DNA from: an uncultured Chloroflexia bacterium
GTDB taxonomy: Bacteria > Chloroflexota > Anaerolineae > Anaerolineales > Anaerolineaceae
NCBI GenBank assembly: GCA_963748065.1
Contig: CAVVHL010000015.1
Location: forward strand, 422 to 64,421
DNA: 64,000 nucleotides
Reading direction: 5' to 3'
Shown piece after piece: positions 3,641 to 36,254 of this stretch. The notes below the pieces were generated by a model that saw nothing but the letters and a program-made list of their open reading frames with translations, searched no databases and was not told where the DNA came from. Each line of letters begins with the position of its first letter. Position 1 is the first letter of the stretch. The position numbers were made by a program, and so were the translations under genes.

Positions 3641-5029
3641 ATGAGAACCAAAAATCCAAATATCATCAAAGTGAGTTTCGTGTTTGTAATGTTTCTAATT
3701 CTGACGCTCGCGTCACCTTATATATTCAATATGAATGTTTCTGCTGACGCACAGGAAACCTGCCCGCATACCGGTGATTGGGTGAAAGTGGATGGAATCA
3801 ATGCCCAATCTTATAACTATTCCGCTCCGGAAGGAAAGCTTGTGGTGGAGGTTTGTTATAAAGCAGGAACGACTGTAAATTATTACAATGTGGATCCGGG
3901 ACAATCCAGTGTGACTGTTACAACCTCTGTCCCGAATCCCAATGATAATGCTTTCCAGGACATCAGCCATGCGAGCTTCCGTTTAGCGACTGAGCCTACC
4001 CCAGAAGTTGAAAATCCATTCGTCCGAATAACATATATCTGTCAAGCAGATGCCGCAGGTGTTGTTGAAGGTTATGGCCTCAACGTCCAACCTGGCGATC
4101 ATATCTGGCGGATTCGTCACAAATCAGGACCCGCGACTGACTTCTCGACTAACTTCCTTTCAGATGTTCAAGGGCATATCAATGTGGGTGAGACGTTATA
4201 TTTTGTCACACCACAGAGTGCAAATGGCGTGAAAGTAATCACATCACCGCTTGATAATCTTTATGGTGGTACGGCCTCTGTCTCCGGATCTATCTGCACA
4301 ATCCCCGAAGAACCCAAAGAAGAACAACCCTTCGTCCGTGTGACATACATCTGCCAGGCAGATGCTGCTGGTATCGTAGAAGGATATGGCCTCAACGTCC
4401 AACCTGGTGATCATATCTGGCGGATTCGTCACGAATCAGGACCCGCGACTGACTTCTCGACTAACTTCCTTTCAGATGTTCAAGGGCATATCAATGTGGG
4501 TGAGACATTATATTTCGTCACACCACAGAGCGCAAATGGCGTGAAAGTAATCACATCCCCGCTTGATAATCTTTATGGTGGTACGGCCTCTGTCTCCGGA
4601 TCTATCTGCTCAGTTCCCGAAGAACCCAAGGGTGGAAGCCTCACTCTCACAAGTGAATGTTTAGGGAATGGCAGTATCCAATGGACAGTGACCAATACTT
4701 ATGAGAAAGAAATGCCATTCAAATGGAAAACAACATCCAATGAAAGTGGAGAAGGTAGCGTTCCTGCAAATTCTTTTACAACTTTTGAGACAACAGTCGC
4801 AGGAAATGAACTTACTCTTTTCTACCTCGTTGATGATCAGGAAGCTGAATTGAGTGACGTAGCAGTCGTTTGTGACTCGCCAAAAACAACTGTTGATGCG
4901 CAACCTGACGTTGCAGCCGGCGGCATGGGACCTTCATTGGTCACCAGCCTGGCACCTTTCGTCACCGGTATCTTCGGTCTCGGTGCAGCATCTATTCTGA
5001 CAGTGAAAAGTAAAAAAGTTACCAAATAG
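3641..5029 (+). CDS. secreted modular protein (gene A): signal peptide, N-terminal domain, 2 x module X, 1 x module Y, 41-aa C-terminal tripartite tail
   Basis: 462-aa ORF with GGAGA 8 nt upstream. Signal peptide ends 'NVSA/DAQ'. Two 104-aa repeats 'FVR.TYICQADAAG.VEGYGLNVQPGDHIWRIRH.SGPATDF...GSIC'. One module 'ECLGNGSIQWTVTNTYEKEMPFKWKTTSNESGEGSVPANS' matches the repeats of 9127..14184. Tail is 'PDVAAGGMGPS', a hydrophobic helix, then 'KSKKVTK'. Confidence 0.85.
   Translation: MRTKNPNIIKVSFVFVMFLILTLASPYIFNMNVSADAQETCPHTGDWVKVDGINAQSYNYSAPEGKLVVEVCYKAGTTVNYYNVDPGQSSVTVTTSVPNPNDNAFQDISHASFRLATEPTPEVENPFVRITYICQADAAGVVEGYGLNVQPGDHIWRIRHKSGPATDFSTNFLSDVQGHINVGETLYFVTPQSANGVKVITSPLDNLYGGTASVSGSICTIPEEPKEEQPFVRVTYICQADAAGIVEGYGLNVQPGDHIWRIRHESGPATDFSTNFLSDVQGHINVGETLYFVTPQSANGVKVITSPLDNLYGGTASVSGSICSVPEEPKGGSLTLTSECLGNGSIQWTVTNTYEKEMPFKWKTTSNESGEGSVPANSFTTFETTVAGNELTLFYLVDDQEAELSDVAVVCDSPKTTVDAQPDVAAGGMGPSLVTSLAPFVTGIFGLGAASILTVKSKKVTK
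4019..4642 (+). repeat. 2 x 312-bp in-frame tandem duplication (module X) inside gene A
   Basis: Copies start at 4019 and 4331. Positions 4073-4297 vs 4385-4609 differ at 6 of 225 nt. The first 54 nt differ at 12 of 54. Confidence 0.95.
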
Positions 5030-5055
5030 TCTCAACTAAATAGTTAAACGGAAAA

Positions 5056-5097
5056 GTACCCGGCTCTCAGTTGATAGACAACTTCAGAGCCGGGTAC
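5056..5097 (+). promoter_or_regulatory. intercistronic stem-loop between gene A and its partner lipoprotein gene
   Basis: Perfect 12-bp arms gtacccggctct (5056-5067) / agagccgggtac (5086-5097). No U-tract follows. The next ATG is 15 nt downstream. Confidence 0.6.
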
Positions 5098-5111
5098 TAC
5101 AATATATAACC

Positions 5112-5906
5112 ATGAAAAAACATCTGAAGCATCTGATCTTCTTATTCGTGATCTTCCTGACAGCCTGTCGGTCAGCTATCCCGTCAGGGACGCCAATTTA
5201 TCGCGGGTCAGACCTTTCAGCGCCAACTCTATCCCCAACGATTGAACAAAGCCAGGCGGTCATCACTACTGAGGAACCGATAATGTCCACGCCCACGCCA
5301 GCAGCCTCGCCCACAGTCAATCCATTTTCTACGTTTTATGATTGTGAAATGCAGATCACATTTACATCAGGTCCTTTGGAATCCAAAAGTACGGATTTTA
5401 AGGTCCTGGGATTGGATTATTTTCAGGACAAAGGTGATAAATTTGAACCCGGAAAAGGGACAAGCATTTATTACGAAGCGCAACGTTATTTCATTATGCA
5501 TTCGTCCTTTGTAAATGGAAACATTCTCCGACCGATGCAAGCTGAATTCCTGCGAAAATATCTTGAATATTGGGGAGAATCAGGGTCAAAATATATCGAG
5601 GGCCAGATCCAAAACCTGATCGGATCAGAAGCCACCTGGGTTTGTGATGGCAAAGTGCTATTCAAAACAAAGATCGATGGCATTGTCCGGCTGTCTCACG
5701 AAGAGACCAATGATGTCTGGCTTAATCCCGAGAACCTGCAGCAGATTTTGTTCAATTCAAAAGTAGATAGTCCTGAACGGCTGGGAGATATGCCGCTTAC
5801 CAACGATCCGCACCTTTATATCGGGTTCTGTGGCTGGGGACCTCAATCTCTTGGTGATCTACGGTTTACGTATTTCCGCTATATTATTCGGTTCATAATT
5901 GAATAG
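5112..5906 (+). CDS. lipoprotein of unknown family (P1), paralog of 7822..8651
   Basis: 264 aa. Lipobox 'LTAC', a Ser/Thr/Pro linker, then a roughly 190-aa domain. Blocks shared with P2: 'FTSGPL', 'HS.F.NGNILRP', 'YLEYWGESG', 'W.CDG', 'IVRLS', 'GFCGWGP'. Confidence 0.8.
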   Translation: MKKHLKHLIFLFVIFLTACRSAIPSGTPIYRGSDLSAPTLSPTIEQSQAVITTEEPIMSTPTPAASPTVNPFSTFYDCEMQITFTSGPLESKSTDFKVLGLDYFQDKGDKFEPGKGTSIYYEAQRYFIMHSSFVNGNILRPMQAEFLRKYLEYWGESGSKYIEGQIQNLIGSEATWVCDGKVLFKTKIDGIVRLSHEETNDVWLNPENLQQILFNSKVDSPERLGDMPLTNDPHLYIGFCGWGPQSLGDLRFTYFRYIIRFIIE

Positions 5907-5978
5907 CCTTTGACCAACTCTTTAGTAAAATCTGTTAATTCTCGATTAATCTCCCCTAAACAATACTAATCAGACATT

Positions 5979-6016
5979 AATCCCATCGCTTTTTGCTTAC
6001 AGCGATGGGATTTTTT
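5979..6016 (+). terminator. intrinsic terminator after P1
   Basis: 12-bp stem aatcccatcgct / agcgatgggatt (5979-5990 / 6001-6012), running into a T6 tract. Confidence 0.85.
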
Positions 6017-6366
6017 GAATTAAGAAATAGATTAATCACCTCTATAAAACCACTACTTTTAAGAAACATTACCATCAAAGACATAAATGAAGTAATTCAT
6101 GATCGATTAATAATATATTTTATATATACTTAATTTGTTTGATTATTTTTATAATTTTCCAAAACATACCAATTGATTTTCGGTTTTTTACAAACAACTA
6201 AAACAATTGTTATATCCGAATCATTACATTGAAATTAATATCACATTAATTGGTATTGATATTTTCTCATCATAAACTTATAATGATATTAAGTTTACGA
6301 TTAGTAAACATTTTTACTATATTAATTTCAATTTAGTGTTCAATCAATGTGAGTGAGGAGACTATT

Positions 6367-7741
6367 ATGAAATCAGGGAAAATCAAGTACCTAGCAATTT
6401 TCGGCGTATTGATGATCTTATTGATCATCGGTACCAGTGCAGTTTTTGCACAAGAAGACCGTGATGCACGAATCTTGACTGAAGTAAATACGTCAACGGC
6501 CAGCGAATTGCAGCATCGTCAATGAAAACCATTATAAAGTCGGAGATCACATTTATCTTCAGATCAAATCTGTTGTTCAATCCCCACAGTCAATTCGATT
6601 GGTGCAATTGACACAACCAACGGTCATCAGCATTTGTACCGGTAACTGGTGACGACTGCACAAATTCTGAGACCATATTGCTACGATACTGGTTATGTGC
6701 TTCAACCTGGCGATGTAGCAATATCTCCGCTTCAAAGCAACTGTATGGTTATAGGTGGTGATTCAAAAACTGAAAACTCCGAGTGACCATCATGAACGAG
6801 CCCAAAGACCAGCGGCGACGTTGTTATTCGTTCACATGCAATCGTGCAGCTGAATCAAAGATATATCGCTGAAATATCATGGCTCAGCCGTGCAAGCCTG
6901 ACGATCAATAACATTTGGTAGCAGAGACATTCTGTCCGACGATCTACCCAAAGGAATTCACATTAGCTATAGGCTTCATTCTCATTCTCATAGTTGTAGT
7001 TTGATTCAGAACACTCTGGAGGCGGAACAGTAACTGGAAATACAGATCCATGCTGTGAACCAAAGAGGAACAGCCCTTTGTTCGAATCACTTATATTTGT
7101 AAGGCTGAGGTGGCAGGGGTTGTAGAAGGATATAATTTAAACGTCCAACCTGGCGATCACATTTGGCGGATTCGGCAGAGAAAAGGCCCAGCGACTAACT
7201 TCACCACCAACTTCCTTTCTGATGTTCAAGGGCATATTGAAGTGGGTCAAACACTCTTCTTCGTCACACAGCAATTTGCGAATGGCGTGAAAGTAATCAC
7301 CTCACCTCTTGAAAATCTTTATAAAGGAACCGCTTCCGTATCAGGAGCAATTTGTAATGTTCCTGTAGAACCGGAGAAAGCATCTGTTTCATTCGTAACA
7401 GATTGTGACTATGTTGACGGTCAATCAATTAATACTGTTGAAATGATTATTGCCAACGCGACTTTGACGATTAACAAAGCTGATTATTCATCGAAAATGA
7501 CACATTAAAATCTAATTCCTCCGGTGACTATCTTATTCATGGGTCCGGTAAGCACGGACTTCATCAGTCAGGTGAGGGTATACTGACCATCGGTACCTGC
7601 AAACCTAAAGAAATTCCGGATGTTGCAGCCGGCGGTATGGGACCTTCATTCATCTCGATCGTTGCCCCAGCCCTACTAGCAGTCTCCGGTATCGCCTTGG
7701 TCTGGGTCCTGATCAAGAACAGGATTAAAGAGACTAACTAA
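6367..7741 (+). pseudogene. decayed paralog of gene A (gene B)
   Basis: A signal peptide 'MKSGKIKYLAIFGVLMILLIIGTSAVFAQE' is followed by a stop after 53 codons. Between 6530 and 7075 the coding-like stretches change frame about every 45 codons, and no ORF of 60 aa or more exists in any frame. One module X survives (ORF 7110..7508, with homology from about 7078). The 41-aa 'PDVAAGGMGPS...KNRIKETN' tail sits in yet another frame (7616-7741). Confidence 0.65.
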
Positions 7742-7759
7742 ACATCTAACCGATCTAAC

Positions 7760-7811
7760 GGACCCGGCAGGCTTACCAATTTCATTAATCATCGGTAAGT
7801 TGGCCGGGTCC
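7760..7811 (+). promoter_or_regulatory. intercistronic stem-loop between gene B and P2 (positional equivalent of 5056-5097)
   Basis: Outer arms ggacccggc (7760-7768) / gccgggtcc (7803-7811). Inner arms cttacc (7772-7777) / ggtaag (7794-7799). Confidence 0.55.
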
Positions 7812-7821
7812 TTTCACGTTT

Positions 7822-8651
7822 ATGATTCGAAACAAAGCAGCTGTCATTCTTTTAAATATCATCTTTATTCTAAGTTCGGTGAGTGCGTGTACATCCGCCT
7901 CCACCGAACCTTTTAGTGTCGATTCCTCGCTTTTGGAAACATCTATCCCCCAAACATCGAAAGAGGTTGGGTCACCAGAATCAATCGGGGCAGAAATTGC
8001 CAATGCCACCTCTGAACCTGAGGACACGCACTTTCACATTCCCGAACTCTATATGGATGTGAAATGGTGATGAAATTCACCTCAGGTCCACTAAAAGGAA
8101 AGAAAAGCAAATTCACCGTCCTGACTGAAGATTATTTTGCCGATAAGGGCGAACGATTTTATCCCGGTGAAAAAACTGCCGTTTACTATGAAGGCCCGCG
8201 TTACCTCATTCTTCATTCCGCTTTCGCCAACGGAAATATCCTTCGTCCCCTCGAAGCGGAATTCATCCGGTATTATCTTGAATATTGGGGGGAATCTGGG
8301 ACTGAATTCATCCAGGATCGGATCGATGAGTTGATCGGCTCCAAAGTTGAATGGACCTGCGATGGCGTGATAATTCTGCAAACAGAAATCAATTCCATCG
8401 TCCGTCTTTCGGCAACCGCATCAAATGAAATATGGGAAGATCCAATATATCTCCGTCAAATCTTACTCAAACACGAGGGTAAAGCAGACGAATGGATCGG
8501 CGAGATGGATCCTTATTTTATGGATACCTTCTTCCTCGGCTTTTGCGGTTGGGGACCAGAGGAAAGTGGAGACGCTCGTTATTATTATTATCGTTACCTG
8601 ATCAATTTCAATATCCTACCTTCGGAAACATTCACAAAATCCGGTAAGTAA
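7822..8651 (+). CDS. lipoprotein of unknown family (P2), paralog of P1; one frame break near 8058
   Basis: ORF 7822..8070 (lipobox 'VSAC') and ORF 8064..8651 join if one T is restored in 'gatgtg'. That gives '...ELYMDCEMVMKFTSGPL', matching P1 '...FYDCEMQITFTSGPL'. Confidence 0.75.
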
Positions 8652-9126: not shown

Positions 9127-12100
9127 ATGATTTATCGCGCTAATAACAAGAAAAAAATAAGCACATTTGCTTTATTGGGTTTGTTCATGATCTTCTCCAT
9201 GCTGATGACTTCCACGGTGGAAGCACAGAATTTAGGAGATGGACAAATCACAGAGACCATCGCTGTTGCGAGTCCGAATTTTACGGACACGGTTGGCGAT
9301 GGTGTAACGCCAACAGATGAAAGTACACCATCATCTACACCTACAGACTCCTCCGGACTGGAGCTGACTCCGACAGAAGGGTCGACCACAGAAACACCGA
9401 CCCTCCCCGCCGAAGTTCCAACGATAATTGAGGGTCAGTCAACCGAAGGAACCCAACCGGCTGAGGAAACTCAAACACCTGACCCGGAACAAACGGCGGA
9501 GAGCACCGAAACGCCATCCGGAAATGAAGGTTCGAGCAATCCATCAGCAACGCCCCCAGTTAATCCTACTGAGACAGTGGAAAGCACCGAAACGCCATCT
9601 GGTGATGAGGGTTCGGGTGATCCATCAGCAACACCTCGGTTGATCCTACTGAGACAGAAGATGTTACTGATCCGTCAGCGACACCTTCGCCTGATCCCGA
9701 ATCGACCGAAGCGGTCGTCACTGAAGAGGGAACTTCAACCCCCGAAGATTCCACAGACCGTGCAAGTGGTTCAATTTGGACGACCAATTCAAGCTGCGCT
9801 CCCCAGGACATCAACCATTATGATATTGGTCAGCAAATCTGGATCCGTGCTGCGAATTTTCACCATAATAAAACCTATAACTGGTCTATTACAGAAGCCG
9901 GACAGGGTTTCCCGGTTGTCGTGAGTGGAACACAGAAAACCGATAATAACGGTTATGTCTGTTTTTACGCGTATACCTTCACAGGTTCTGACACGATCAA
10001 TAATCCTTACAAGGCAAATTTTGGCTATAAAAACGACAATTTCAATGTAAACGAACCTAAACCCGAAGACAGCCCATTGGCACTGTCCGCCCAATGCCAG
10101 CTCGATGGCAAACATCAATGGTCGGTCGGCAATCCCAACGACTATGACATCAATTTTTACTGGGAATCAACCAGTGGTGAAAACGGCTTCGGATCCGTTC
10201 CTGCGAATGGAAGCACATCCTTTACAAGCGATAAAAGCGCTCAAACTGTGACCGTTTATTACCAATTCAGTGGTAGGACTGTACACAGCGAGACTGTCTC
10301 TTTATCCGTTGATGCGTGTACTGAACCGATTGATCTCCAATTGGATTATGAGTGCGGTGACGGTGGCAGTCACATCTGGACTGTTACAAATGACAACGAC
10401 TTCGCAATGGATTTCACCTGGGATTCAACCACCGGTGATTTTGGCAGCGGACAGGCTCCTGCAGGTGGAACCGCAACCTTCGAGACCGGCAGCGATGCCC
10501 AAACTGCAACGATCCATTATCAATTCCCCACGACTGTCCGGACTTGGAACCACGATCAGAAATCCGTCAGTATTTACGCTGAAGAATGCAAAGTTCAAGA
10601 AAACATCAATCTCGAACTTGATTATGAGTGCCAGGATGACGCCAGTCACCTCTGGACGGTCACGAACAGCAATGATTTCGCAATTGAATTTACCTGGTAC
10701 TCGAACAAAAATGGGCAGCACGGCAGTGACACGGTTCCCGCAAACGACACCGCCACTTTCACAACTAACAATAAAGCCCAGACCGTCACAATCAGTTATA
10801 AATTCCCTGAGAACTCTCGCTGTGGTGGTGGTTGTGGAGATCCCGACATCATCAAGCTGAGTGTCAGTGCTGAAGAATGCAAGATTGAGAACAAAGACCT
10901 TCAATTAAAATACGACTGCCAGGATGATGGCGATCATCTTTGGACAGTTACGAACAATAATGGTTTCGCCATTGAATATGAATGGACATCCAATGTGGCC
11001 GGTCAGCATGGCAGCGGCACGGTTGGTGCAAACAGTACAGACACCTTTACTACCAACAGCGCAGCCCAAACAGTGACCGTCAACTGGTCCTTCCCGAGTG
11101 GTGACCGCTGCGGCACAGGACGATGCAGTCCTGAACTCCAATCCGTCAGTATTGAAGCCGAAATCTGCAAGGTCGCCATCGTGGACCTCAGTCTCGCGGT
11201 GGAATGTATGCCAAACGGCCAACACAAATGGATCGTTTCAAACAGCAACAATTTCCCGGTCGATTTCAATTGGGAATCCACCGATGGCAGCAGTGACACT
11301 GGCATTCTGTCTTCGCAAAAGGTACGGCTTTCTTTACCACAAGTTCAATTGCCCAAACAGCAACAATCCACTGGGATGACAATGGTGAGGATAAAACCGC
11401 AACAAAATTCGATGATGCCTGTCAGGTTCCGCTTGAAAAACTGGAACTCTCCGTGATCTGTTTATCGAATGGCACCCATCAGTGGACAGTAACCAACAAT
11501 AACGACTTTGCATTAGACTTCAATTGGTCATCAACCACCGGCGAGGGCGATAGTAGAACAGTAAATGCAAACTCAACACGCACATTCACAAGCAATATCA
11601 GCAGCCAAACCGTAACGGTCAAATATACCTATGCTAATGTTGAAAGAACACTCACATTGCAGGATGAAACCTGCAGCGCTCCTGAGCTTTCACTTTCATA
11701 CATTTGTGGTTTTCCTTCGGACACTTCCCTCTTATGGAAAGTGACCAATAACAATGACTTTGCAGTTAAATTCTCCTGGAGTGTTGCCGGTGAAAGTGAA
11801 AGTGGGAGTGGATCAGTTGCAGCAAACAGTACTGCCAAATTCTATACAAGCCTCGGCAATAAAACCATCGAACTCTTCGTTTTGGGCCAAAAAGTCGATC
11901 AGGCAGATGGCGGGGAATCCTGCTATTACTGACCTGACGCTGGAATATGAATGTCTTGAAAACGGCAATCATTATTGGACCGTAAGCAACGACAATGATT
12001 TCGATCTATCCTTCGCCTGGTCATCAACCTCTGGTGCCAGCGGCTTTGAAACAGTTACTGCCCATAATTCAGTGAACCTGACGACCGACATCACTGCTCA

Positions 12101-14184
12101 GACCATGACCATCATTTATGATTATGGCGAATTACCGGAGAGGTCCATCAGCGTTGAAGCACAAGTTTGTGAAGCGCCCAGCCTTCTTTTGACCTATATC
12201 TGCGGCTATCCCTCAGATACGGAACTCATCTGGCGGGTACGGAACGATCATGACTTTGATGTATCCTTCACCTGGGACGTATATGGATCGACCGAAAACG
12301 GAAGCGGCGTCGCCGCAGCGAATTCGGATACATTCTTCACAACTTCCCTGGGTAACAAGACGGTTCGGATCTTCGTCTCCGGCCAACTGGTCAACACGAA
12401 AGCCGGTGGTTCGACCTGCAAGGTCGATCTTGAACTCGATTATTCCTGCCTTATCACTGGTCTGCACGAATGGACCGTTGTCAACGGGAACACATTTGAT
12501 CAGGAATTCGACTGGTCATCAACCTCCGGTGAAAGCGGCACATTGGTTGCGCCGGCAAATGGATCCATAACTTTCATCACCAACCGTGATGCTCAGACAA
12601 TGACGATCACCTATCAAAACTACGTACATCCTGAAAAGACGGTCTCCATAAATGGTGAGGTCTGCAAGTCGCCCACCCTCGAACTGTCCTATGAATGTGG
12701 ATATCCAACCGATGCTAATCTCTATTGGTACGTGACGAATCCTTACGACGTCGATATTGCTTTCAACTGGGAAGTCGTCGGTGATAACGAGAGCGGCAGC
12801 GCAATAGCAAAAGCTAATTCTGATACCTTATTCACCACCTCGACCGGTCTCAAGACCGTCAAGATCATGGTGGAAGGTTACGAAGTGGATTCACAGCAAG
12901 GCGGCGAAAGCTGCATGGTCAAATTGGACCTTTCTTACAGCTGCCTCAGCAATGGCACGCAGGTTTGGACGATAACCAATACCAACAAAGACGATCAAGA
13001 TTTCACCTGGACGTCAACCTCTGGCGCCAGTGGATCGGGTACCGTTCTGGCAGGTGATTCATACAAGTTCACAACGGACAACATCAGTCAAACGATCACC
13101 CTGAATTACCAGTTCGGACCTTTCCCGGCGCAAACCACGACAGCTTCAGGCGAAGTCATGTAAAGTCTCAACCCCCGAACCGCCGTCCTTCTCTTCATAC
13201 AATAGCAGTGGAACCTGCATCGATTGGCTGGTATTCCACACAATGCGTGACGGCAATTTGGAAGTCTATCGCCTGGATGGCATCGAGGGAGTCGGCGACT
13301 ATGTGCTGACCAACCTTTCCAAGAGTGATGCAGTTGACGAACGGCCAAGCCGCTCACCGAACAACGCCTGGGTTGCATTCCAATCCGATCGTGACGGAAA
13401 CTTCGAGATTTATAACACAGATAGCAATGGTAACGCTCAAATGCGGCTGACCGACAATGAAGCCAGCGACATCAACCCGATATTCAGTCCCGACAATACG
13501 CATATCGCCTTCCAGAGCGACCGCAATGGTAACTGGGACCTCTACCTGGTTGACCGGGTTTCAGGTAAAGTCACCCAATTGACCGATAACGCAACTGACG
13601 AGATCAATCCGTTCTTCTCCTCGGATCAGAACTGGCTCGTCTATCAAAGCAATCAAAACGGTAACTGGGATGTCTACATGCTAAATCTTTCAACAGGCAT
13701 GGAATACCAGGTCACTGACAGCGCTCAAGATGAAGTTGATCCCGCCTGGTCACCGACCAGTCAGAAGATCGCTTATCTGTCCCCTGTGGATGGCATCCTG
13801 CAGCTCTTCGTGATCGACATTGACGGCAATAATAATGTACAGCTCACCGATGGTAATGGCGATACCCTGAATCACGCCTGGTCACCGGACGGTACGCGGC
13901 TCGCTTATCAGTCCTCTCGTGACGGGAACCTGGATATTTACTCCTACGATCTCCGTGACGGAAAGGAATATCGAGTGACCACGGACGCCAATGATGACAT
14001 CGGCCCGACCTGGGATTGCGGTGGCGTCAACCTGGCTTACACAGGCAACCCCAACGGCGGCAATACGGATATCTTCCAGGTTTTCTGGAAAGGCGGCGCA
14101 TCAAGCCACCTGACGAACAACCCGGCCATCGATAAATGGTCAGAGTGGTCGCCAACAAAAGAGACCGCTAGCCGTAACAACTAA
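9127..14184 (+). CDS. giant secreted repeat protein (gene C, about 1685 aa reconstructed): signal peptide, Thr/Pro/Glu linker, beta-rich domain, 12 Cys-bracketed modules, TolB-like (PD40) beta-propeller
   Basis: ORFs 9127.., 9921.., 11453.., 11754.. and 13243.. form one reading frame with single-base breaks near 9633, 11305, 11920 and 13157. Protein-like sequence continues straight across each junction in the next frame. The C-terminus has repeated 'SPD....IAFQSDRDGN.(D/E)(I/L)Y' units typical of TolB/PD40 blades. Confidence 0.8.
9499..9680 (+). repeat. 81-bp in-frame tandem repeat (about 2.2 copies) in the acidic Thr/Pro linker
   Basis: Unit 'ESTETPSG(N/D)EGS(S/G)(N/D)PSATPPV(N/D)PTETV' starts at 9499 and again at 9580. 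Confidence 0.85.
10075..13165 (+). repeat. 12 tandem ~85-95-aa modules 'L.L.YEC..dG.H.WTVTN.NDF...F.W.S..G..GSG.v.AN.t.tFtT...aQTvTi.Y ... C'
   Basis: Read directly from the translation. Each module begins and ends with a Cys. From module 6 onward two subtypes alternate. Confidence 0.85.
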
Positions 14185-27782: not shown

Positions 27783-30658
27783 ATGGTATTCATGTGCCTA
27801 AATAGATCTACTTCTCGTTCATCTTCATTCTTGTTGATCATTACATTGTTATTTGCGTTGACCTTTTCCGCCCAGGATATCATACCTGTTCAAGCGGCAG
27901 GGGTTCGCCATGTCAAACCAGCTGCAAGCGGAACGGGGGATTGTTCCAGTTGGGAGGATGCCTGTACATTACAAACCGCGCTAACCGACGCGATCAGTGG
28001 TGATGAAATTTGGGTCTTTGCCGGGACTTATACCCCTGGTCCACTTCGCACGGATACCTTCCAACTAAAGGCTGGCGTCGGTCTCTATGGTGGTTTCTTT
28101 GGGACTGAGACGGTACGCGATGATCGTATCCCAACAGTTTTTATTACCACCCTCAGCGGTGATATTGGCACGCAAGAAGATAACAGCGACAATTCATATC
28201 ACGTTGTCACAGGCGTAACCGGGGCGACCAGCGCGACGATTCTGGATGGCTTCACTATCACTGGGGGAAATGCTAATGGCGCTACTAGTCCCAATAATTG
28301 CGGTGGCGGGATGTACAACCCTACCAGCAGTCCAACATTAGATGAACCTTACTTTCATCGGCAATTCGGCTGGCATTTGTGGCGGCGGGATGACCAACAC
28401 ATCAAGCAGTCCGTGGCTTACGAACGTTACTTTTGGCAATAATTCGGCTGGGTCGAGAGGTGGCGGGATGTATAACTTTACTAGCAGTCCGCATCTTTGG
28501 AACGTTACCTTCAGCGAAAATTCGGCTGGGTCGGAAGGCGGCGCAATGTACAACGACAACCAGCAGTCCTAACTTTTGGAATGTTACCTTTAGCGATAAT
28601 TCGGCTTGGATCGGAAGGCGGCGGGATGTATAACTTTACCAGCTATCCAATAATCTATAACACGATCTTCTGGGGTAATACAGCTCCTAACGGTGCGCAA
28701 ATTTTCAACGCCACTGCTGGGGCTCCCATTGTAAACGATAGTGTCGTGGAGGGCGGGTGCCCTGCTTTAAGCACTTGTACGAACATCATCATTACTGACC
28801 CCCATCTCGGTCCATTGGGAGATTACGGCGGTTTCACCCCAACTATCCCGCTCATGATGGGTTCATCTGCAATTGACGCGCTCCCAACTGGTACGAATGG
28901 CTGCGGCACAACTATCACAACCGACCAGCGTGGGGTGGAACGTCCGCAAAGCTCTGATTGTGACATCGGCGCGTTTGAGCAAGATGACTTCACCGCACCC
29001 AGTGTGATCTCATTCAACCTGAAGACACCGGCTACAAATCCCACTAATGCGGAGACGCTCACCTTCCTGGCTACATTCAGCGAACGGATGGCGGATGTGG
29101 ATATTGCTGATTTCGTTAATAACTCTTCAAGCACTGCAACAGTCACCGCTGTCTCCTATGTTACCAACGGCATGTATGATGTGACAATCTCTGGTGGCGA
29201 TTTGGCAAGTTTCAATGGTGAGGTCAACCTCAATTTTAGTACGTCAGCAACCATTACAGATCTGGCCGGTAATGTTCTGCCGGTTACCGAACCTGGCATT
29301 GACCAGACCTACGAGATTGATACAATTGCACCGGACACGCAAATTGACACCCAGCCTGCCAATCCGAACAACAGCACCAGTGCCAGTTTCAACTTCTCCA
29401 GTGCAGATGTCTCATCCACGTTTGAATGTTCACTGGAAGGTGGTGTTTATGCTGGCTGCACTAACCCCAAGAACTACACCGGGCTAGAAGAAGGTTCACA
29501 CATCTTCGCAGCCCGCGCCAAAGACACGGCGGGCAATGTGGACGCCACTCCGGCTTCCTACACCTGGGTGGTCGATACAACTGCACCAACGATCACGATC
29601 ACCGAACCTGACACCAGCGCAGCGCTGAGCAAAACCATCACAGCCAGTGCTTCGGACGGCACGTTGACGATGAGCAATACCACCGGTATAACCTGTGATG
29701 GCACCTTGACGTTTGTTACGTATTCCAGCCAGATATTTTCATCTGAGTTCTGATAACGGCATAAAGGTATGTTATAAGGCAGTAGACGCTCTCGCGAATA
29801 CCGCTTACAACCTGTCTGAGGCTATCTCAGGCATCGATACAACTGCGCCGACGATCACGATCGCCCAACCTGACACCAGTCCAGCGCTGAGCAAAACCAT
29901 CACAGCCAGTGCTTCGGACGGCACGTTGACGATGAGCAATACCACCGGTTCAACCTGTGATGGCACCTTGTCGTTTGTTACGTATTCCAGCCAAACATTT
30001 TCATCTGAGTTTGATAATGGCACAAAAGTATGTTACAAGGCAGTAGACGCTCTCGGGAATACCGCTTACAATCTGTCTGAGGCTATCGAAGGTATCGATA
30101 CCACTGCACCAACGATCACGATCACCGAACCTGACACCAGTCCAGCGCTGAGCAAAACCATCACAGCCAGTGCTTCGGACGGCACGTTGACGATGAGCAA
30201 TACCACCGGTATAACCTGTGATGGCACCTTGACGTTTGTTACCTATTCCAGCCAGGTATTTTCATCTGAGTTTGATAACGGCATAAAGGTATGCTATAAG
30301 GCAGTAGACGCTCTCGCGAATACCGTTTACAACCTATCTGAGGCTATCACAGGCATCGATACAACTGCACCGACGATCACGATCACCGAACCTGACACCA
30401 ATGTAGCGTCATACAAAACCATCACAGCCAGTACGCCGGACGGGACGTTGACGATGAGCAATACCACCGGTTCAACCTGTGATGGCACCTTGTCGTTTGT
30501 TACGTATTCCAGCCAAACATTTTCATCTGAGTTCTGATAATGGCACAAAAGTATGTTACCAGGCAGTAGACGCTCTCGGGAATACCGCTTACAATCTGTC
30601 TAACGCTATCGAGGGCATAATTCTATTTACCATATTCCTGCCGGTGTTTCTGCGCTGA
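27783..30658 (+). CDS. secreted parallel beta-helix (Pmp-type repeat) adhesin-like protein with Ig-like domains and 4 x 87-aa repeats; five frame breaks
   Basis: Signal peptide present. Repeats 'GGGMYN.TSSP.L.NVTF..NSAG' span frames 27783.., 28342.., 28433.. and 28497.. (breaks near 28339, 28560, 28608). 'TDQRGVERPQSSDCDIGAFE' block. 'DT.AP' Ig-like units. Extra C at 29750 and 30534. The reconstructed frame ends '...NAIEGIILFTIFLPVFLR*' at 30658. Confidence 0.7.
29574..30618 (+). repeat. 4 x 261-bp tandem repeat in a-b-a-b order (522-bp super-repeat)
   Basis: Units start at 29574, 29836, 30097 and 30358. Copies 1/3 share 'ITCDGTLTF...DNGIKVCYKAVDALANT'. Copies 2/4 share 'STCDGTLSF...DNGTKVCYKAVDALGNT'. 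Confidence 0.9.
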
Positions 30659-31208
30659 AATCTCTGCCAAAAATATGCAGGGAGACTATCCCATCTACCT
30701 GTCTCACTGCCAAAAGGCCTTTCCAGTAATACATATCAACGTTGGCTGTTGACCTTACCCCAAAATATATACCAGCCATTATGATAGTCAAACCGACTGA
30801 ACATGGGTGGGTTGAATTAAGATAGCCATAGGCACAGGGGGTAATATCATAGCGAACCATGTGGTCGAACCTTGATGAAATCCTCACCTCAATAAAGCAG
30901 AATATTCCGATAAATTCGAAGTAAATTTGTCGTAACGAATTATGCTCAAGGTCCTTGAGTAGGCATAAAGAGATTCGAATCAATTATCTCGCGAATCATG
31001 ACATGATTCCAGTAAGTATATAAATAAGGTACTTTATTTAGCATGCATTTTTGTTGATAAAGTCCAACAGAAAAATCTATATGAATTCGGTATATAATTA
31101 GATATATTAAATCCCACACCATCAAGATATAAAAGACACATAAACGCGAATGACTGGGGTAATGAGCAGCCCAAGGTACCGCCTAAGGCTTTACGAGGGG
31201 ATGTTAAA

Positions 31209-33455
31209 ATGGAAATATTAGAAAAAGATATCCTGGAACTCGCCGAGAGCATCATCAATACGATTCGTCACCCTTTGATCGTTTTGGATAAATGACCTCA
31301 GGGTAATCACTGCCAGCCGTTCCTTTTATGAATTCTTTAAAGTAAAACCTGAAGAGACTATAGGGCAACTTGTCTATGACTTAGGCAATAATCAGTGGGA
31401 TATCCCCAAGCTACGAGAATTATTGGAATCCATCCTGCCCAATAAATCACACTTTGATAACTATATTGTTGAACATAATTTTGAAGCTATCGGCAGGCGT
31501 ATCATGGTATTAAATGCCAGCCAGATGCAAGGGTTGCCAGAAAAGGAACAGGTCATCCTTCTGGCCCTCGAGGACATCAGCCAGCGCAGATATTTTGAAG
31601 TTAAATTGGAAAAAGTCCCAATACCATTGGAAGTAGATAATAAATCCATATCAAGATCTCTTGAATACACCCAAGGTATTTTAAACACTATTCGTGAAAT
31701 CTCTAATTGTTTTAGATAATGATCTTAGGATATTGTTTGCCAGCCGTTTCTTTTATGAATTCTTTAAAGTAAAACCTGAAGAGACAATAGGGAAGCTTAT
31801 TTATAACATAGGCAACAATCAGTGGGATATGCCCAAGCTGCGGGAACTGCTGGAATCTATTCTCCCCCATCAAATAACCATTGAAAACTATGAGCTTGAA
31901 CTCGATTTTATGACCATCGGCAAGCGTATCATGCTTATAAATGCCAGGCAGATCCAAGGGTTGCTAGGAAAGGAACAGATCATCCTTCTGGCCATCGAGG
32001 ACATCACCGAAGCGAAACAAGTGGAGGAGGAAAGAATCAGGAGTTTGGCAAGATTCCCTGACGAGAACCCCCACCCGGTTTTAAGGATATCCAAAGAGGG
32101 AAAAATCATTTATGCTAACGAACCCAGCAGAGCTATGCTAAATATGTGGGGCAAATCAGTCGGAGAAAATGTACCTACAAATTGGAAAAATAATATCTCC
32201 AAATCGTTTAAATCTGGTGATATCCTGGAATTTATAGAAATTGTTGAGAGCAATACTTTTTCATTTATCCTTTTACCAATTACAGAAATGGATTATCTCA
32301 ATGTCTATGGGAAGGACATAACCGATACGCGATCGCGCATATCGACTTTTAAATTCCCTCAACGAGGCTTCTACTGCCATGGAGTCAATTCTGGATTTTG
32401 AAGAGGTTTTCAGCGTGATCAATAAGCAACTCAAAGAGTTTGGGTTTTTTACAGTGCTATTTCAGGTTGATGAAACCCAAACCAACATTTCACCACGATT
32501 TCTTTCCATGGAATCAAAAGTATTCAAGGCTTTAGAAAAACTTCTGGGGTTAAAAATGTCGGATTTATGGATTCCGATCGAATCGATTGACGTTTTTAGT
32601 CATGTTGTACAGGAAAAAGAAACTGTTATTTCGGAAAATATATTTCAGTTAATTAAACAGATGATGCCCCACCATTTTAAAAAGATTGTGACTATTGTTC
32701 CAAAGTATCTGAAAGAAATGAATGGTATTTTTGCTCCTCTGATAATTGAAGATGCTGTTAAGTGGGTCCTCGGAGTATCCTCGAAGGACCTTACCAAGGC
32801 AGATATCCAAGCTATCACAGCCTTTGCTCATGAGATGGTAAACACCTGGAATAGAACCAAATTAATACAGGATCTGAAAAAAACCATAGAGGGAACCATC
32901 CACATACTCGCAGCAACCGTTGAAACACGTGATCCGTATACAGCCGGCCATCAGGAAAATGTATCTGAACTGGCTGTCGCCATTGCTAATGAAATGCATC
33001 TTACTGAACAGCAGGTTGAAGGCATTCGTATGGCTGGATTGATCCACGATCTGGGAAAGATCCAGGTTCCAGCAGAAATTCTAAGTAAACCTGGAAAGAT
33101 ATCTGAACTTGAATTTGAATTGATCAAAATACATCCCCAGGTCGGTTATGATCTTTTAAAAGATATTGAGTTCTCATGGCCGATAGCCGATATAGTTCAT
33201 CAACACCATGAGAAGATGGATGGCTCTGGTTACCCGCAGGGGTTGAAAGGTGACGAGATTTTAATTGAGGCCAGGATCCTGACTGTGGCAGATATCGTTG
33301 AGGCCATGTCCTCCCACCGACCATATCGGCCTGCATTAGGCATTAAAAAGGCTTTGGATCAAATCAAGCAAGATAGGGGTGTTCTATTGGATACCCATGT
33401 CGTTGATGCTTGTTTGAAGATATTTAAGGAGGGGTATCAGTTACCGGAGGATTAA
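31209..33455 (+). CDS. PAS-PAS-(PAS/linker)-HD-GYP signalling protein (c-di-GMP phosphodiesterase type); three frame breaks
   Basis: GAGGGG lies 8 nt before ATG 31209. Two 142-aa PAS units 'LIVLD.DLR......FYEFFKVKPEETIG.L.Y..GNNQWD.PKLRELLESILP'. C-terminal 'HDLGK' and 'HHEKMDGSGYPQG'. Breaks near 31286 (aaa where the paralogous unit has aa), 31697 and 32330. Confidence 0.75.
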
Positions 33456-34049
33456 TAATTTCAAGCTTTCTGATCAGGGTGAAGTGATTACTAAATTTAG
33501 GCGAATGGGGGCAATCGCACGGTATTTTTCAAATAAAGAATTTACTTGCGGTATATCAAAAGATAATAATTTCTATGTTATTTTAAGATAAAAGTTATCG
33601 AAACCACACCCTCACGGACTTAGATAAATATCCATATTTGTATACAGAATCATAATCTTCAATATCCTTAGATGCGAACTTCAAACCTGACAGAAGATAA
33701 CTCTATTTTTATGGGATGATATTTTTATGCTAGGGCTCGCGACCGAGCGAATTTTGGAGCGATTCCTATAGGGTTATATTCTTTCATTTATCAGAGAATA
33801 TTTGTATACCAATGGTTTGCGTTACCTGCAGACGGTTTTATCAGACAACTCCTTTGCAATCAATACCTTGCAGGTGAAATGCCTGACCATGCAGTTCAGT
33901 ATCTAGGGGGATTGTGCATTATTAAAAGATTAGTATTGAAATTGTCGTCACGTATGCATATCTAATATATGATATATTGTTATTATATTTAATCGGATCC
34001 CACAAAAGATACATCGAACACAAACACTTAATTTTATGGGGAGGTTTGA

Positions 34050-34799
34050 ATGGTCCATAAAAAATTTTTTATTTTCATTATGTCAATGATTCTGCAAGTA
34101 TTCATGTTAATGGGCTGCAGCTCAACTCCGGAACAGGTTATGCCAACGACCGAACAAACATCTGTTCCTACGGACCAAACGTACCCTACTATTGAAGAAA
34201 CCTCTCTCCCGGCAGATCCAATTACTCCTCCGGTTGAGGACAATTCTCCTACACCGGAAGTATCTAAAGTATGGTCAGATGACTTCGAGGATGAGAATTT
34301 GGACGGGTGGGATACTTGGAATGCAGATGGTAGTTTTTATGTAGAAAACGGCATATTAACATCAACGCTTAGAGGTGATTTATCTCACCTAAGCTCAATA
34401 TTATTTGGAACCTGGAGTTTCGATCTATATATAGATCCTAATGATTCAGGAGCGACGCATGAGTTTCGTTTTACAGAAGGGGTAACCAACTTTCAGAATT
34501 TAGAAATAAGACAATTCCAAAATACTCAGATATGGATCACCACCCAAAACGATTACTCTGAAACATTTCGTACCTATGTGGATTTGGGGGAAAAATTAGA
34601 GGGTTGGCACCATTTTGATATAACGAAAGGTGAGAGCGGTCTGATTAAGGCTTACCTGGATGGTGAATTTCTATTCGGGCATTTCGATGAAAGGTCATTC
34701 AATTCTGAAATCATTAATCATCATGTATTGTTGTAAAGGTCCTGTGTTGGACAATCTGGAAGTTCAAGACCAGATTATTGAAATCTTACCAAATGAATA
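34050..34799 (+). CDS. secreted lipoprotein, possible concanavalin/LamG-like jelly-roll domain; possible frame break near 34710
   Basis: Lipobox 'LMGC' and a Thr/Pro linker. 'WSDDFEDENLDGWDTWNADGSFYVENGILT' is typical of jelly-roll lectin-like domains. The +1 frame continues 'IIMYCCKGPVLDNLEVQDQIIEILPNE*' to 34799. Confidence 0.5.
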
Positions 34800-35152
34800 A
34801 CACAAGAAAAGTGACCTGACTTCATACATGTAACAATCTCTATGAGAGACTAGCGAGTTGGATTTGGTTAGGTCGAAAAAAGATTTTCACGGATTTATTT
34901 GTTGTGTCACACGCCTGAACGTTTAGGTACACATATAGACGGAATACACGTAGTCAGAAGAATTGAGTTGTAATAGCCGGTTAATCAACTTGCTTTAAGA
35001 GTAACAATCTGTACGACGTAAAAACCCCTGGATCATTTTTAATTGATTTCAGTAGGTCTCCAATATAAACGCGACACCGATTCATTGACAATATTAGGAC
35101 ATTAGCTCCACAATATTTTAAATTAAACAATTTTATCCAAAGCGTCCCAGCG

Positions 35153-35201
35153 GCTTTCTAAGCCACCAGGATGCCGCCTAACAAACGGAGGCGCATTTTG
35201 C
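35153..35201 (+). repeat. 49-nt repeat, copy 2 (partner at 27317..27365)
   Basis: gctttctaagccaccaggatgccgcctaacaaacggaggcgcattttgc. The flanks are unrelated to those of copy 1. Confidence 0.9.
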
Positions 35202-35336
35202 TTATAGTGGGTGATCGGCGCTGTTAGTTAAAATCAAAACTAATTCAGAAATCTTTTGAATAGCCGGTTTGGTTTATGGAATGATTTTCTTTATAATCAC
35301 AAATGAAAAGAAAGTTGTATCCCGATCTGGGAAACC

Positions 35337-35864
35337 CTATAGCTCCAACTCCACTAATAACACCCAAGCATTTTGTGATGCTGAACCTAAAAGAAGAATA
35401 ATGATTAATACAATACCATATAAACTGACTTCTTTCTGGAGCAAAATTCCTACTGAAAGTAAAACTAATGCCCCCAGACAAATAATGGGCATAATAAATC
35501 TCGAAGTAATATCGAGCTTTAGCCCTTTCTTTTGTTTATTTCTAGCTTTTCGTTGTTGAAGAATTGTATTAATTCCACCCACAATTCCTAAGATCATTAT
35601 TAAAATTCCTAAACCAATTGAAGTAATATTTGGAATGAGGAAAAGTACAGCCAAGATAAAAATATAAAAAAAGCTATTAAAGGTAAGCGCTGCAAAAAGA
35701 CGTAAATTTCCAGAGAATTTATTCCGAAACAGTTCTACATTTATCGAAATTGCAATAAATAATAATCCAATCAGAGTAACGCCAGCTGTTCCAGTTAGTA
35801 AATAGAAAGTTTCCCATGTGTGTATCGCTTCCGTAAACGTATCCATTTGTTCTTCTTTCTGCAA
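35337..35864 (-). CDS. hypothetical integral membrane protein (about 5 TM segments)
   Basis: 175-aa ORF with five long hydrophobic segments and a central basic loop 'QQRKARNKQKKGLK'. I recognise no family motif. Confidence 0.5.
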   Translation of the reverse strand: MQKEEQMDTFTEAIHTWETFYLLTGTAGVTLIGLLFIAISINVELFRNKFSGNLRLFAALTFNSFFYIFILAVLFLIPNITSIGLGILIMILGIVGGINTILQQRKARNKQKKGLKLDITSRFIMPIICLGALVLLSVGILLQKEVSLYGIVLIIILLLGSASQNAWVLLVELEL

Positions 35865-36254
35865 TCCTGCCTATTTAGAATGATCTAATTCCCCTTCTTT
35901 AAAAGCAGCTTTAGCCGTCTAAATTTTCCTTCTCCTTGACACACTCTCCTTTTGTTAAAGCAGCTTGCTGGCCTCTTTCACTTTCTTGCTTTGACCGATC
36001 TAGATCTTTTTCTCTCGAAGTTTGGTGATGATTTGTTCGGAGGGGATAAAATTGTCTTCTTCCCATTACTAACCTCCAATTTCTCCAAATACTATCACAA
36101 TATCTGGATCAGTTCTTAATAATCAGGTCAATTTTACATATAATTTTGGATTGGTCGGTGCAAAATGGAGAATTCATTTTTGCATTCACTCTAAAACTAT
36201 TTTAGTATGGTTTTAGAGCGGCAACAAATTTGTATTTTTCCTATTAATATGTCA

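Follow-up and report, generated by a model that had tools for sequence, protein, structure and literature searches.

Tandem gene pairs in an Anaerolineaceae contig

We analyzed a 64,000-nucleotide stretch of DNA (hereafter, the window) from an uncultured Chloroflexia bacterium of the family Anaerolineaceae (GenBank assembly GCA_963748065.1, contig CAVVHL010000015.1, positions 422 to 64,421 of the forward strand). The subject of the analysis is a pair of adjacent genes, denoted A and P. The first encodes a secreted protein with a distinctive C-terminal tail, and the second encodes a lipoprotein that is proposed herein to be a dedicated, sortase-like enzyme acting on that tail. An earlier note on this DNA had described the pair as occurring twice within 5 kb, in equal order and on the same strand, and both copies are indeed present. 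The relevant features are as follows, with coordinates given for the window.

3641..5029, plus strand: A1, an intact putative substrate of 462 aa (open reading frame (ORF) translation)
4904..5026, plus strand: A1 tail of 41 aa, consisting of PDVAAGGMGPS, 23 hydrophobic residues (LVTSLAPFVTGIFGLGAASILTV) and KSKKVTK
5055..5098, plus strand: A1-P1 intercistronic hairpin of 44 nt, stem GUACCCGGCUCU...AGAGCCGGGUAC
5112..5906, plus strand: P1, a predicted sortase-fold lipoprotein of 264 aa (sequence and structural model)
5979..6017, plus strand: intrinsic-terminator-like hairpin and U-run at the end of the A1-P1 unit (folding)
6367..7741, plus strand: A2 pseudogene, with only three recognizable parts
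7760..7811, plus strand: A2-P2 intercistronic hairpin, stem GGACCCGGC...GCCGGGUCC (z = -5.8)
7822..8651, plus strand: P2, a gene for a paralogous lipoprotein, predicted to have the sortase fold, interrupted by a 1-nt deletion near 8059

The A1 protein begins with a signal peptide (residues ~1-35) and an N-terminal domain of ~80 aa (~38-118). These are followed by two near-identical, Cys-bracketed repeats of ~103 aa each (nt 4010-4318 and 4319-4627), a third Cys-bracketed module (nt ~4649-4891) and, finally, the tail. The body of A1 has no match in Pfam, NCBIfam or PDB. Between the A1 stop and the P1 start lie 82 nt, within which the 44-nt hairpin is predicted to be unusually stable (-30.1 kcal/mol, z = -6.98 by RNA folding). 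P1 in turn consists of a signal sequence ending in a lipobox (L-T-A-C19, with Cys19 at nt 5166-5168), a Pro/Thr-rich linker of ~55 residues (20-74) that is disordered in the structural model described below, and a putative catalytic domain of ~190 aa (residues 75-264, nt 5334-5903). The key residues of this domain are H130 (nt 5499-5501), C240 (nt 5829-5831) and R256 (nt 5877-5879). The hairpin that closes the unit (-19.6 kcal/mol, z = -5.6) has a 12-bp stem followed by UUUUUUG. The architecture given in the earlier note, namely a signal peptide, Cys-bracketed modules and a 41-aa tail in an intact A1 and a decayed A2, with a lipoprotein encoded about 80 bp downstream beyond a stem-loop, was therefore recovered in full.

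The P1 domain is predicted to adopt a sortase fold

The putative catalytic domain of P1 was modeled with AlphaFold2 from a wider alignment (pLDDT 95.2, pTM 0.91) and compared with PDB using Foldseek, as the earlier note had recommended; sortases, whose fold is an eight-stranded beta-barrel, were the only structures that it resembled. The best 17 matches were all sortases, of classes A, B and E. The highest-ranking was SrtB (1ng5, E = 2.4e-5), and Spy0129 (3psq) was matched at E = 2.6e-5. Also among these matches were SrtA (1t2o, 1t2p and 1t2w, with TM-scores by target of 0.49-0.54 for 1t2p and 1t2w) and SrtE (9m2n). After these 17 the list fell abruptly, the next match having a probability of 0.03 and the remainder not exceeding 0.07. 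With an AlphaFold2 model of full-length P1 (pLDDT 81.5), the ten best PDB matches were ten sortases. L,D-transpeptidase and NlpC/P60 folds were considered as well and rejected, no such structures being among the Foldseek matches.

Sortases place their catalytic His, Cys and Arg at strands beta4, beta7 and beta8, respectively (H120/C184/R197 in SrtA and H130/C223/R233 in SrtB). In the P1 model, His130 is located two residues past the fourth strand (E52-54 of the domain model), Cys240 closes the long seventh one (E160-167) and Arg256 opens the final one (E181-189). In the model, the arrangement of H130, C240 and R256 matches the sortase order, as judged by the order of secondary-structure elements and not by superposition. 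Relative to sortases, the P domain contains two insertions: helices between beta4 and beta5, which carry an invariant ExxRxxxE, and a helix in the loop between beta7 and beta8.

P proteins form a rare family with conserved His, Cys and Arg

P1, P2 and ~70 homologs have no relevant match in Pfam, NCBIfam or the PDB sequences, in keeping with the earlier note, whose author recognized no family for this domain. Homologs of P1 numbered 96 at 90% clustering among 5.8 billion proteins, all of them unnamed or 'hypothetical', and the UniRef and NCBI entries for the family are annotated as 'uncharacterized' or 'hypothetical'. The family is also rare, since an exhaustive HMMER search of 1.84 billion proteins returned 51 representatives, some at 20-30% identity. 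PF27998 was considered as a family label and set aside; it is assigned (as a precomputed annotation) to only one of the 96 homologs, P0037, so it is unlikely to define the family.

Eight residues (H130, S131, E145, R148, E152, F239, C240 and G241) are invariant in 72 family sequences, down to ~20% identity, and W242 and R256-Y257 are nearly invariant in the same set. The Cys-to-Arg spacing in the family is 12-16 residues; in SrtA it is 13. The lipobox pattern [LVI][ASTVI][GAS]C, typical of bacterial lipoproteins processed by Lgt and LspA, is present in both proteins encoded in the window (FLTAC19 in P1 and SVSAC in P2). Among homologs, the LPAM_1 model gave a weak match in 7 of 44, and the Cys at the lipobox position is retained in most.

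Other architectures occur within the family. Variants of ~400 aa (P0086, P0088, P0090, P0091 and P0094, and those encoded at 9103-10329 of L008 and 8571-9424 of L020, where L numbers denote homologous loci) have an N-terminal TPR region and a transmembrane (TM) segment instead of the lipoprotein signal. In L008 and L020 these variants adjoin the gene of a giant PD40 protein and not that of a tail protein. Members of a third, more distant clade (P0129-P0143) exhibit twin-arginine-like signal peptides together with a lipobox, and two of them are long multidomain proteins of 557 and 899 aa. Given either a lipobox or, in the ~400-aa variants, an N-terminal TM segment, the P domain is therefore predicted to lie outside the membrane, as it does in sortases.

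The C-terminal tail behaves as a modular sorting signal

Tails from the Brevefilum clade conform to the motif P-D-x-[PA]-A-G-G-x-G-P-S, and the 17 tails compared show no variation at its D, G, G and P. Those of a second clade, associated with the candidate division WWE3, conform to (T)-E-P-[SK]-L-G-G-[GE]-x-P (also seen as EPSLGGGxP). Both clades have in common the core [DE]xxxGGxxP, with a TM segment and then a basic end after it. The spacing of the acidic residue, the Gly-Gly and the Pro has been kept between the clades while the enzymes diverged to ~25% identity. Putative substrate motif peptides are DAQPDVAAGGMGPSLV and TVDAQPDVAAGGMGPSLV for P1 and PTEPSLGGGKPES for a WWE3 enzyme.

At least four mutually non-homologous protein bodies carry the tail. 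None has a known domain, and no informative match to any of them was found in Pfam or PDB. Because it is found on unrelated bodies, the tail behaves as a modular sorting signal. The earlier note did not recognize PDVAAGGMGPS as a named sorting class; likewise, curated sorting-signal models from NCBIfam and Pfam (LPXTG, GlyGly-CTERM, PEP-CTERM, PGF-CTERM and others) matched none of eight representative tails at E<=10. The tripartite layout of the LPXTG-type signal (TIGR01167/PF00746) is thus present in tails that its models do not match. The GlyGly-CTERM model is similarly unmatched, and no rhomboid was found among the neighboring genes that were scanned or annotated.

Tail-bearing proteins are encoded beside P genes in two phyla

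The earlier note had proposed that relatives be scanned for co-occurrence of the tail and the P domain. A search for the tail covered 469,552 bp, including the other ~59 kb of the window, and 2,448 stop-to-stop ORFs of at least 60 aa, each of which was examined for an ending of the form [DE]xxxG[GA]xxP, a hydrophobic stretch and Lys/Arg. It identified 33 ORFs, and all 33 are located within 309 nt of a P-family ORF on the same strand (measured between stop-to-stop ORF boundaries), with none elsewhere. The tail ORF is usually upstream of the P gene and sometimes downstream. These pairs include 13 loci of the WWE3 clade, whose enzymes are 25-30% identical to P1. So consistent a pairing of tail and P gene greatly exceeds what chance would produce.

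When genomes were scanned at one per species, at least 16 P loci were found, all those listed being in metagenome-assembled genomes of Brevefilum/Anaerolineaceae (Chloroflexota). A metagenome scan with the distant clade added at least 14 loci, and one protein from these has exact counterparts among the hypothetical proteins of candidate division WWE3 / Katanobacteria, a member of the candidate phyla radiation (CPR). Adjacency in two phyla, like the anatomy of the locus, the sortase-like predicted fold and the conserved His, Cys and Arg, is a direct result of the analysis.

Among relatives of the window the genes are syntenic, with a radical-SAM gene, a CN-hydrolase gene and a phosphoglycerate mutase gene followed by A and P. 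The complete Chloroflexota genome CP069394.1 (L004) has the order A-P-A'-P', with four intact genes, and L001-L003 have the order A-P-P'. The P1-type and P2-type enzymes are old paralogs, and next to each is a tail of a distinct subtype.

In L004, the syntenic block is immediately preceded (positions 1-1097) by the gene for a protein of 1362 aa that combines fn3-like regions with a C-terminal sortase domain of the canonical PF04203 type (TLITC). These organisms therefore also have ordinary sortases, which raises the possibility that the tail is processed by an enzyme encoded elsewhere (a canonical sortase, a rhombosortase or an exosortase/archaeosortase) and that P is unrelated to processing. 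Some features of the tail would fit: a Gly-Gly precedes a TM helix and a basic cluster, as in GlyGly-CTERM, and xPAGG loosely parallels LPXTG/LAXTG, VAAGG being readable as LAXTG-like. The failure of the curated models to match any of the eight tails argues against this, as does the fact that P is the only invariable neighbor of the tail genes. Moreover, the canonical sortase of L004 is absent from the syntenic L001-L003, and neighbor scans and annotations, which covered the near neighbors in the window and L001-L004, revealed no rhomboid or exosortase. We consider processing by such an enzyme to be highly improbable.

The damaged second copy and the intercistronic hairpin

In the second copy, gene order and strand are identical to those of A1-P1. 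A2 retains the signal peptide (6367-6462), one A1-type repeat that is 74-78% identical in aa sequence (7062-7406), and the final module with the tail (7329-7738, with a frame change near 7487), whereas 6463-7060 is unrecognizable and has stops in every frame. The tail itself is intact (7616-7738) and reads PDVAAGGMGPSFISIVAPALLAVSGIALVWVLIKNRIKETN.

The earlier note had placed a lipoprotein gene at 7822..8651. The gene is there, but not as one open frame: relative to P1, P2 lacks one T near 8059 (GATTGT to GATGT), and the resulting frameshift splits an ORF for the signal and linker (7822-8070) from a 195-aa catalytic-domain ORF (8064-8651). The latter is otherwise intact and keeps the His, Cys and Arg. 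Intact P2 orthologs are present in L002, L004, L005 and L015. The single-base lesion in P2 may be real or may be a sequencing error, but A2 has decayed too far for such an error to account for it. It had also been argued that survival of the pairing in a decaying copy indicates a functional link; the pairing is seen, but this is weak evidence for such a link.

Two observations relate to this second copy. Several genes that are intact in L001 and L002, namely A, the second P gene and the MS-channel gene, are split in L003 (ENA ERZ21831104 ctg97500l, a contig of 3.6 Mb). These splits resemble long-read indel errors, and caution is therefore warranted over single frameshifts such as that in P2 of the window. 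Additionally, His196, which is nearly invariant in the P1 lineage (RLSHEAS), is replaced by Ala in the P2 lineage (RLSATAS/RLSAVAS), which comprises 8064-8651 of the window and its orthologs in L002, L004, L005 and L015; H130, C240 and R256 are kept.

The hairpin between A and P was compared across the two spacers of the window (5055-5098 and 7760-7811) and the A-P spacers of L002, L004 and L006. Its basal stem, RYACCCGGY/RCCGGGURY, is conserved, with three covarying pairs in seven sequences that represent both paralog types. The inner stem is variable yet always self-complementary, and there is no U-run. No match to these hairpins was found in Rfam, and the structure is absent from L012, the sole more distant spacer that was folded. 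A simple terminator scan missed the hairpins because their loops are too long. The element probably sets a high ratio of A to P expression, which could be achieved by partial termination or by transcript stabilization.

A putative sortase-like substrate-enzyme cassette

In the earlier note, the tail was suggested to label a substrate, and the lipoprotein to be a sorting enzyme dedicated to it. The predicted fold, the conserved residues and the recurring adjacency support this proposal, and it appears fairly likely that A1-P1, together with the decayed A2-P2, constitutes the substrate-enzyme cassette of an unrecognized and very divergent sortase-like system. The more specific claim, that P1 and P2 found a new class of lipoprotein-anchored, sortase-fold cysteine transpeptidases with their own signal and a one-to-one substrate in Anaerolineae and WWE3, is in our judgment evenly balanced.

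Several results weigh against this interpretation. PF04203, the Pfam model of the sortase superfamily (MEROPS C60), and the NCBIfam sortase models (classes A-F) matched none of ~70 family members at E<=10, and a profile search of PDB with the P family gave only noise. Alignment of the P-domain profile with a canonical sortase profile using hhalign, run both locally and globally, was not significant (E = 0.11), although the sortase profile was thin (15 sequences, Neff ~3) and the negative is accordingly a weak one. Members of the P family have FCGWGP where sortases have the TLxTC signature, the Foldseek TM-scores are modest (0.4-0.54), and the placement of the three key residues depends, as stated above, on strand order. 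The second copy is broken in the window, so only one pair can be functional there. In L005 and L008, which have complete flanks, P genes occur without an adjacent tail protein (L013 and L024 lack the upstream flank). Finally, a search of the 5.8-billion-protein database with a tail profile returned nothing at E<=1, the model being too short to be informative on distribution.

Some of these points would also fit a tail that is a permanent membrane anchor, with P as a co-expressed partner that is non-catalytic or acts otherwise, e.g., a chaperone, a receptor or a wall-modifying enzyme. Sequence methods do not tie P to sortases, L005 and L008 lack the pairing, and cleavage of A is a prediction. 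However, if P were not an enzyme, it would be odd for its His and Cys to be invariant, and its Arg nearly so, at positions equivalent to those of sortases, and the membrane-adjacent motif is conserved on unrelated bodies and across phyla. In addition, the layout of motif, TM segment and basic end is a hallmark of processed sorting signals (PMC3237569; bioRxiv 10.1101/2023.06.07.544157). A permanent anchor is therefore quite unlikely in our view.

The sortase-like mechanism that we propose would proceed as follows. A would be exported by Sec and held in the membrane by its hydrophobic segment and Lys/Arg-rich stop-transfer end. P, attached through a lipid on Cys19 to the outer side of that membrane, would reach A on its ~55-residue Pro/Thr linker and would recognize the juxtamembrane PDx[PA]AGGxGPS (family core [DE]xxxGGxxP). 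The Cys240 thiolate, aided by His130 and Arg256, would then attack a peptide bond in or beside the Gly-Gly; by analogy with LPXT-G, where the hyphen marks the bond, our guess for the scissile position is xPAG-G. A thioacyl intermediate would form and the TM anchor would be freed. Resolution of the intermediate by an amine, probably on the cell wall or another envelope component, would leave A covalently displayed, and resolution by water instead would release it. Recognition, the cleavage site, transpeptidation and the acceptor are steps that we infer.

Release by water corresponds to a further alternative, in which P would be a hydrolase with the sortase fold, serving as a sheddase or maturation protease. 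It would cut the tail and so free A from the membrane to the wall, sheath or medium, with no transpeptidation. The evidence from fold, triad and adjacency applies equally to such an enzyme, and the present data fit hydrolase and transpeptidase alike. Sortases hydrolyze their substrates when no nucleophile is available, and no acceptor is identifiable from the sequence. Nevertheless, characterized sortase-fold enzymes all act physiologically as transpeptidases, and the long flexible linker and lipid anchor of P fit an enzyme that works at the membrane-wall interface. Purely hydrolytic release of A is thus unlikely, if still worth entertaining.

Neighboring genes

Downstream of the two pairs, at 9127-14184 on the plus strand, lies a gene for a giant secreted protein that is broken into at least five frame segments relative to its intact, 1963-aa ortholog in L005. 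It contains about a dozen copies of the Cys-bracketed module found at residues ~337-417 of A1, and it ends in a PD40 beta-propeller. This giant gene has no sorting tail and is a conserved neighbor of P genes in L005, L008 and L020. The copy in the window could be a pseudogene or a repeat misassembly.

In L007, L009, L011, L012, L014, L017 and L019, which belong to the more distant Brevefilum/Anaerolineaceae loci, genes resembling an ABC-2-type polysaccharide/teichoic-acid exporter and genes for dTDP-rhamnose synthesis are located directly downstream of P. These identities, judged by sequence alone, hint at a link to a wall glycopolymer. Elsewhere in the window, GC content is low across 30001-36000 (0.37-0.42, as compared to ~0.50 around it). 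This region, possibly an island that was acquired, includes one gene with a PAS domain and another of the HD_5 (HD-GYP-like) type.

Relationship to known sorting systems

Among known systems, the nearest parallel is provided by class B sortases whose dedicated substrate is encoded in the operon, such as S. aureus SrtB-IsdC (NPQTN) and S. pyogenes Spy0129 with its pilin. Class B sortases provide the best structural matches to P1 (1ng5 and 3psq), and P resembles them in its predicted beta-barrel with helices in the beta6/beta7 region, in the order of His, Cys and Arg on equivalent strands and in the location of the enzyme gene next to one substrate gene. The signals are also alike in that a non-LPXTG motif precedes a TM segment and a basic tail. 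P differs, however, in having no detectable sequence similarity to sortases, in containing its Cys in FCGWGP rather than TLxTC and in its extra helices. Its anchor is that of a lipoprotein, where class B sortases use a TM helix at the N-terminus, and its associated motif is [DE]xxxGGxxP. The hosts differ as well, with the P family found in Chloroflexota and CPR bacteria and class B sortases in Firmicutes/Actinobacteria.

Other sorting systems share individual features. GlyGly-CTERM and rhombosortase are a signal-enzyme pair that was discovered in silico (Haft and Varghese 2011, PMC3237569), and the P-linked tail similarly has a Gly-Gly motif directly before a TM helix and basic cluster. However, rhombosortase is a polytopic rhomboid serine protease, usually with many substrates per genome, whereas P is a lipoprotein with a soluble Cys/His domain encoded beside one substrate. 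As in the LAXTG signals of class E sortases from Actinobacteria (PMC5148588), Ala is tolerated at the second motif position, and the spacing of xAAGG/xPAGG resembles that of LAXTG. Unlike P, SrtE is a recognizable PF04203 member; the P-linked tail has Gly, not Thr, before the putative scissile position, as well as additional conserved D and GP residues. PEP-CTERM/exosortase, PGF-CTERM/archaeosortase and MYXO-CTERM/myxosortase (PMC1569441, PMC11980579) likewise combine tripartite signals on unrelated bodies with a dedicated enzyme, but there the enzymes are polytopic membrane proteins, their folds are unrelated, and the motifs of the signals differ. The 'Pam pilus' system of CPR bacteria, described in a preprint, was also considered and is unrelated, as it uses donor-strand exchange. 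No description of the P family or of the tail motif was found in searches of the full-text literature.

Viewed against these systems, what is proposed is a new sortase-like class with a new signal and is not categorically new. The analysis also provides annotation with two models, for the enzyme domain and the tail respectively, covering proteins that are now all 'hypothetical'. Covalent surface display in Gram-positive bacteria is understood chiefly through the example of sortases, which have also found wide use in protein ligation. To our knowledge, almost nothing is known experimentally about the envelope types of the Chloroflexota and CPR bacteria concerned.

If the proposed activity is borne out, the range of sortase chemistry and specificity would be extended, and the P enzymes and their tails might provide a new orthogonal pair of ligase and tag. 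The system would also explain how dedicated surface proteins are attached or released in some Chloroflexota and CPR bacteria, and would represent a route of surface display in little-studied and largely uncultured lineages (the filamentous Anaerolineae and WWE3/Katanobacteria), with an acceptor that is possibly not classical lipid II.

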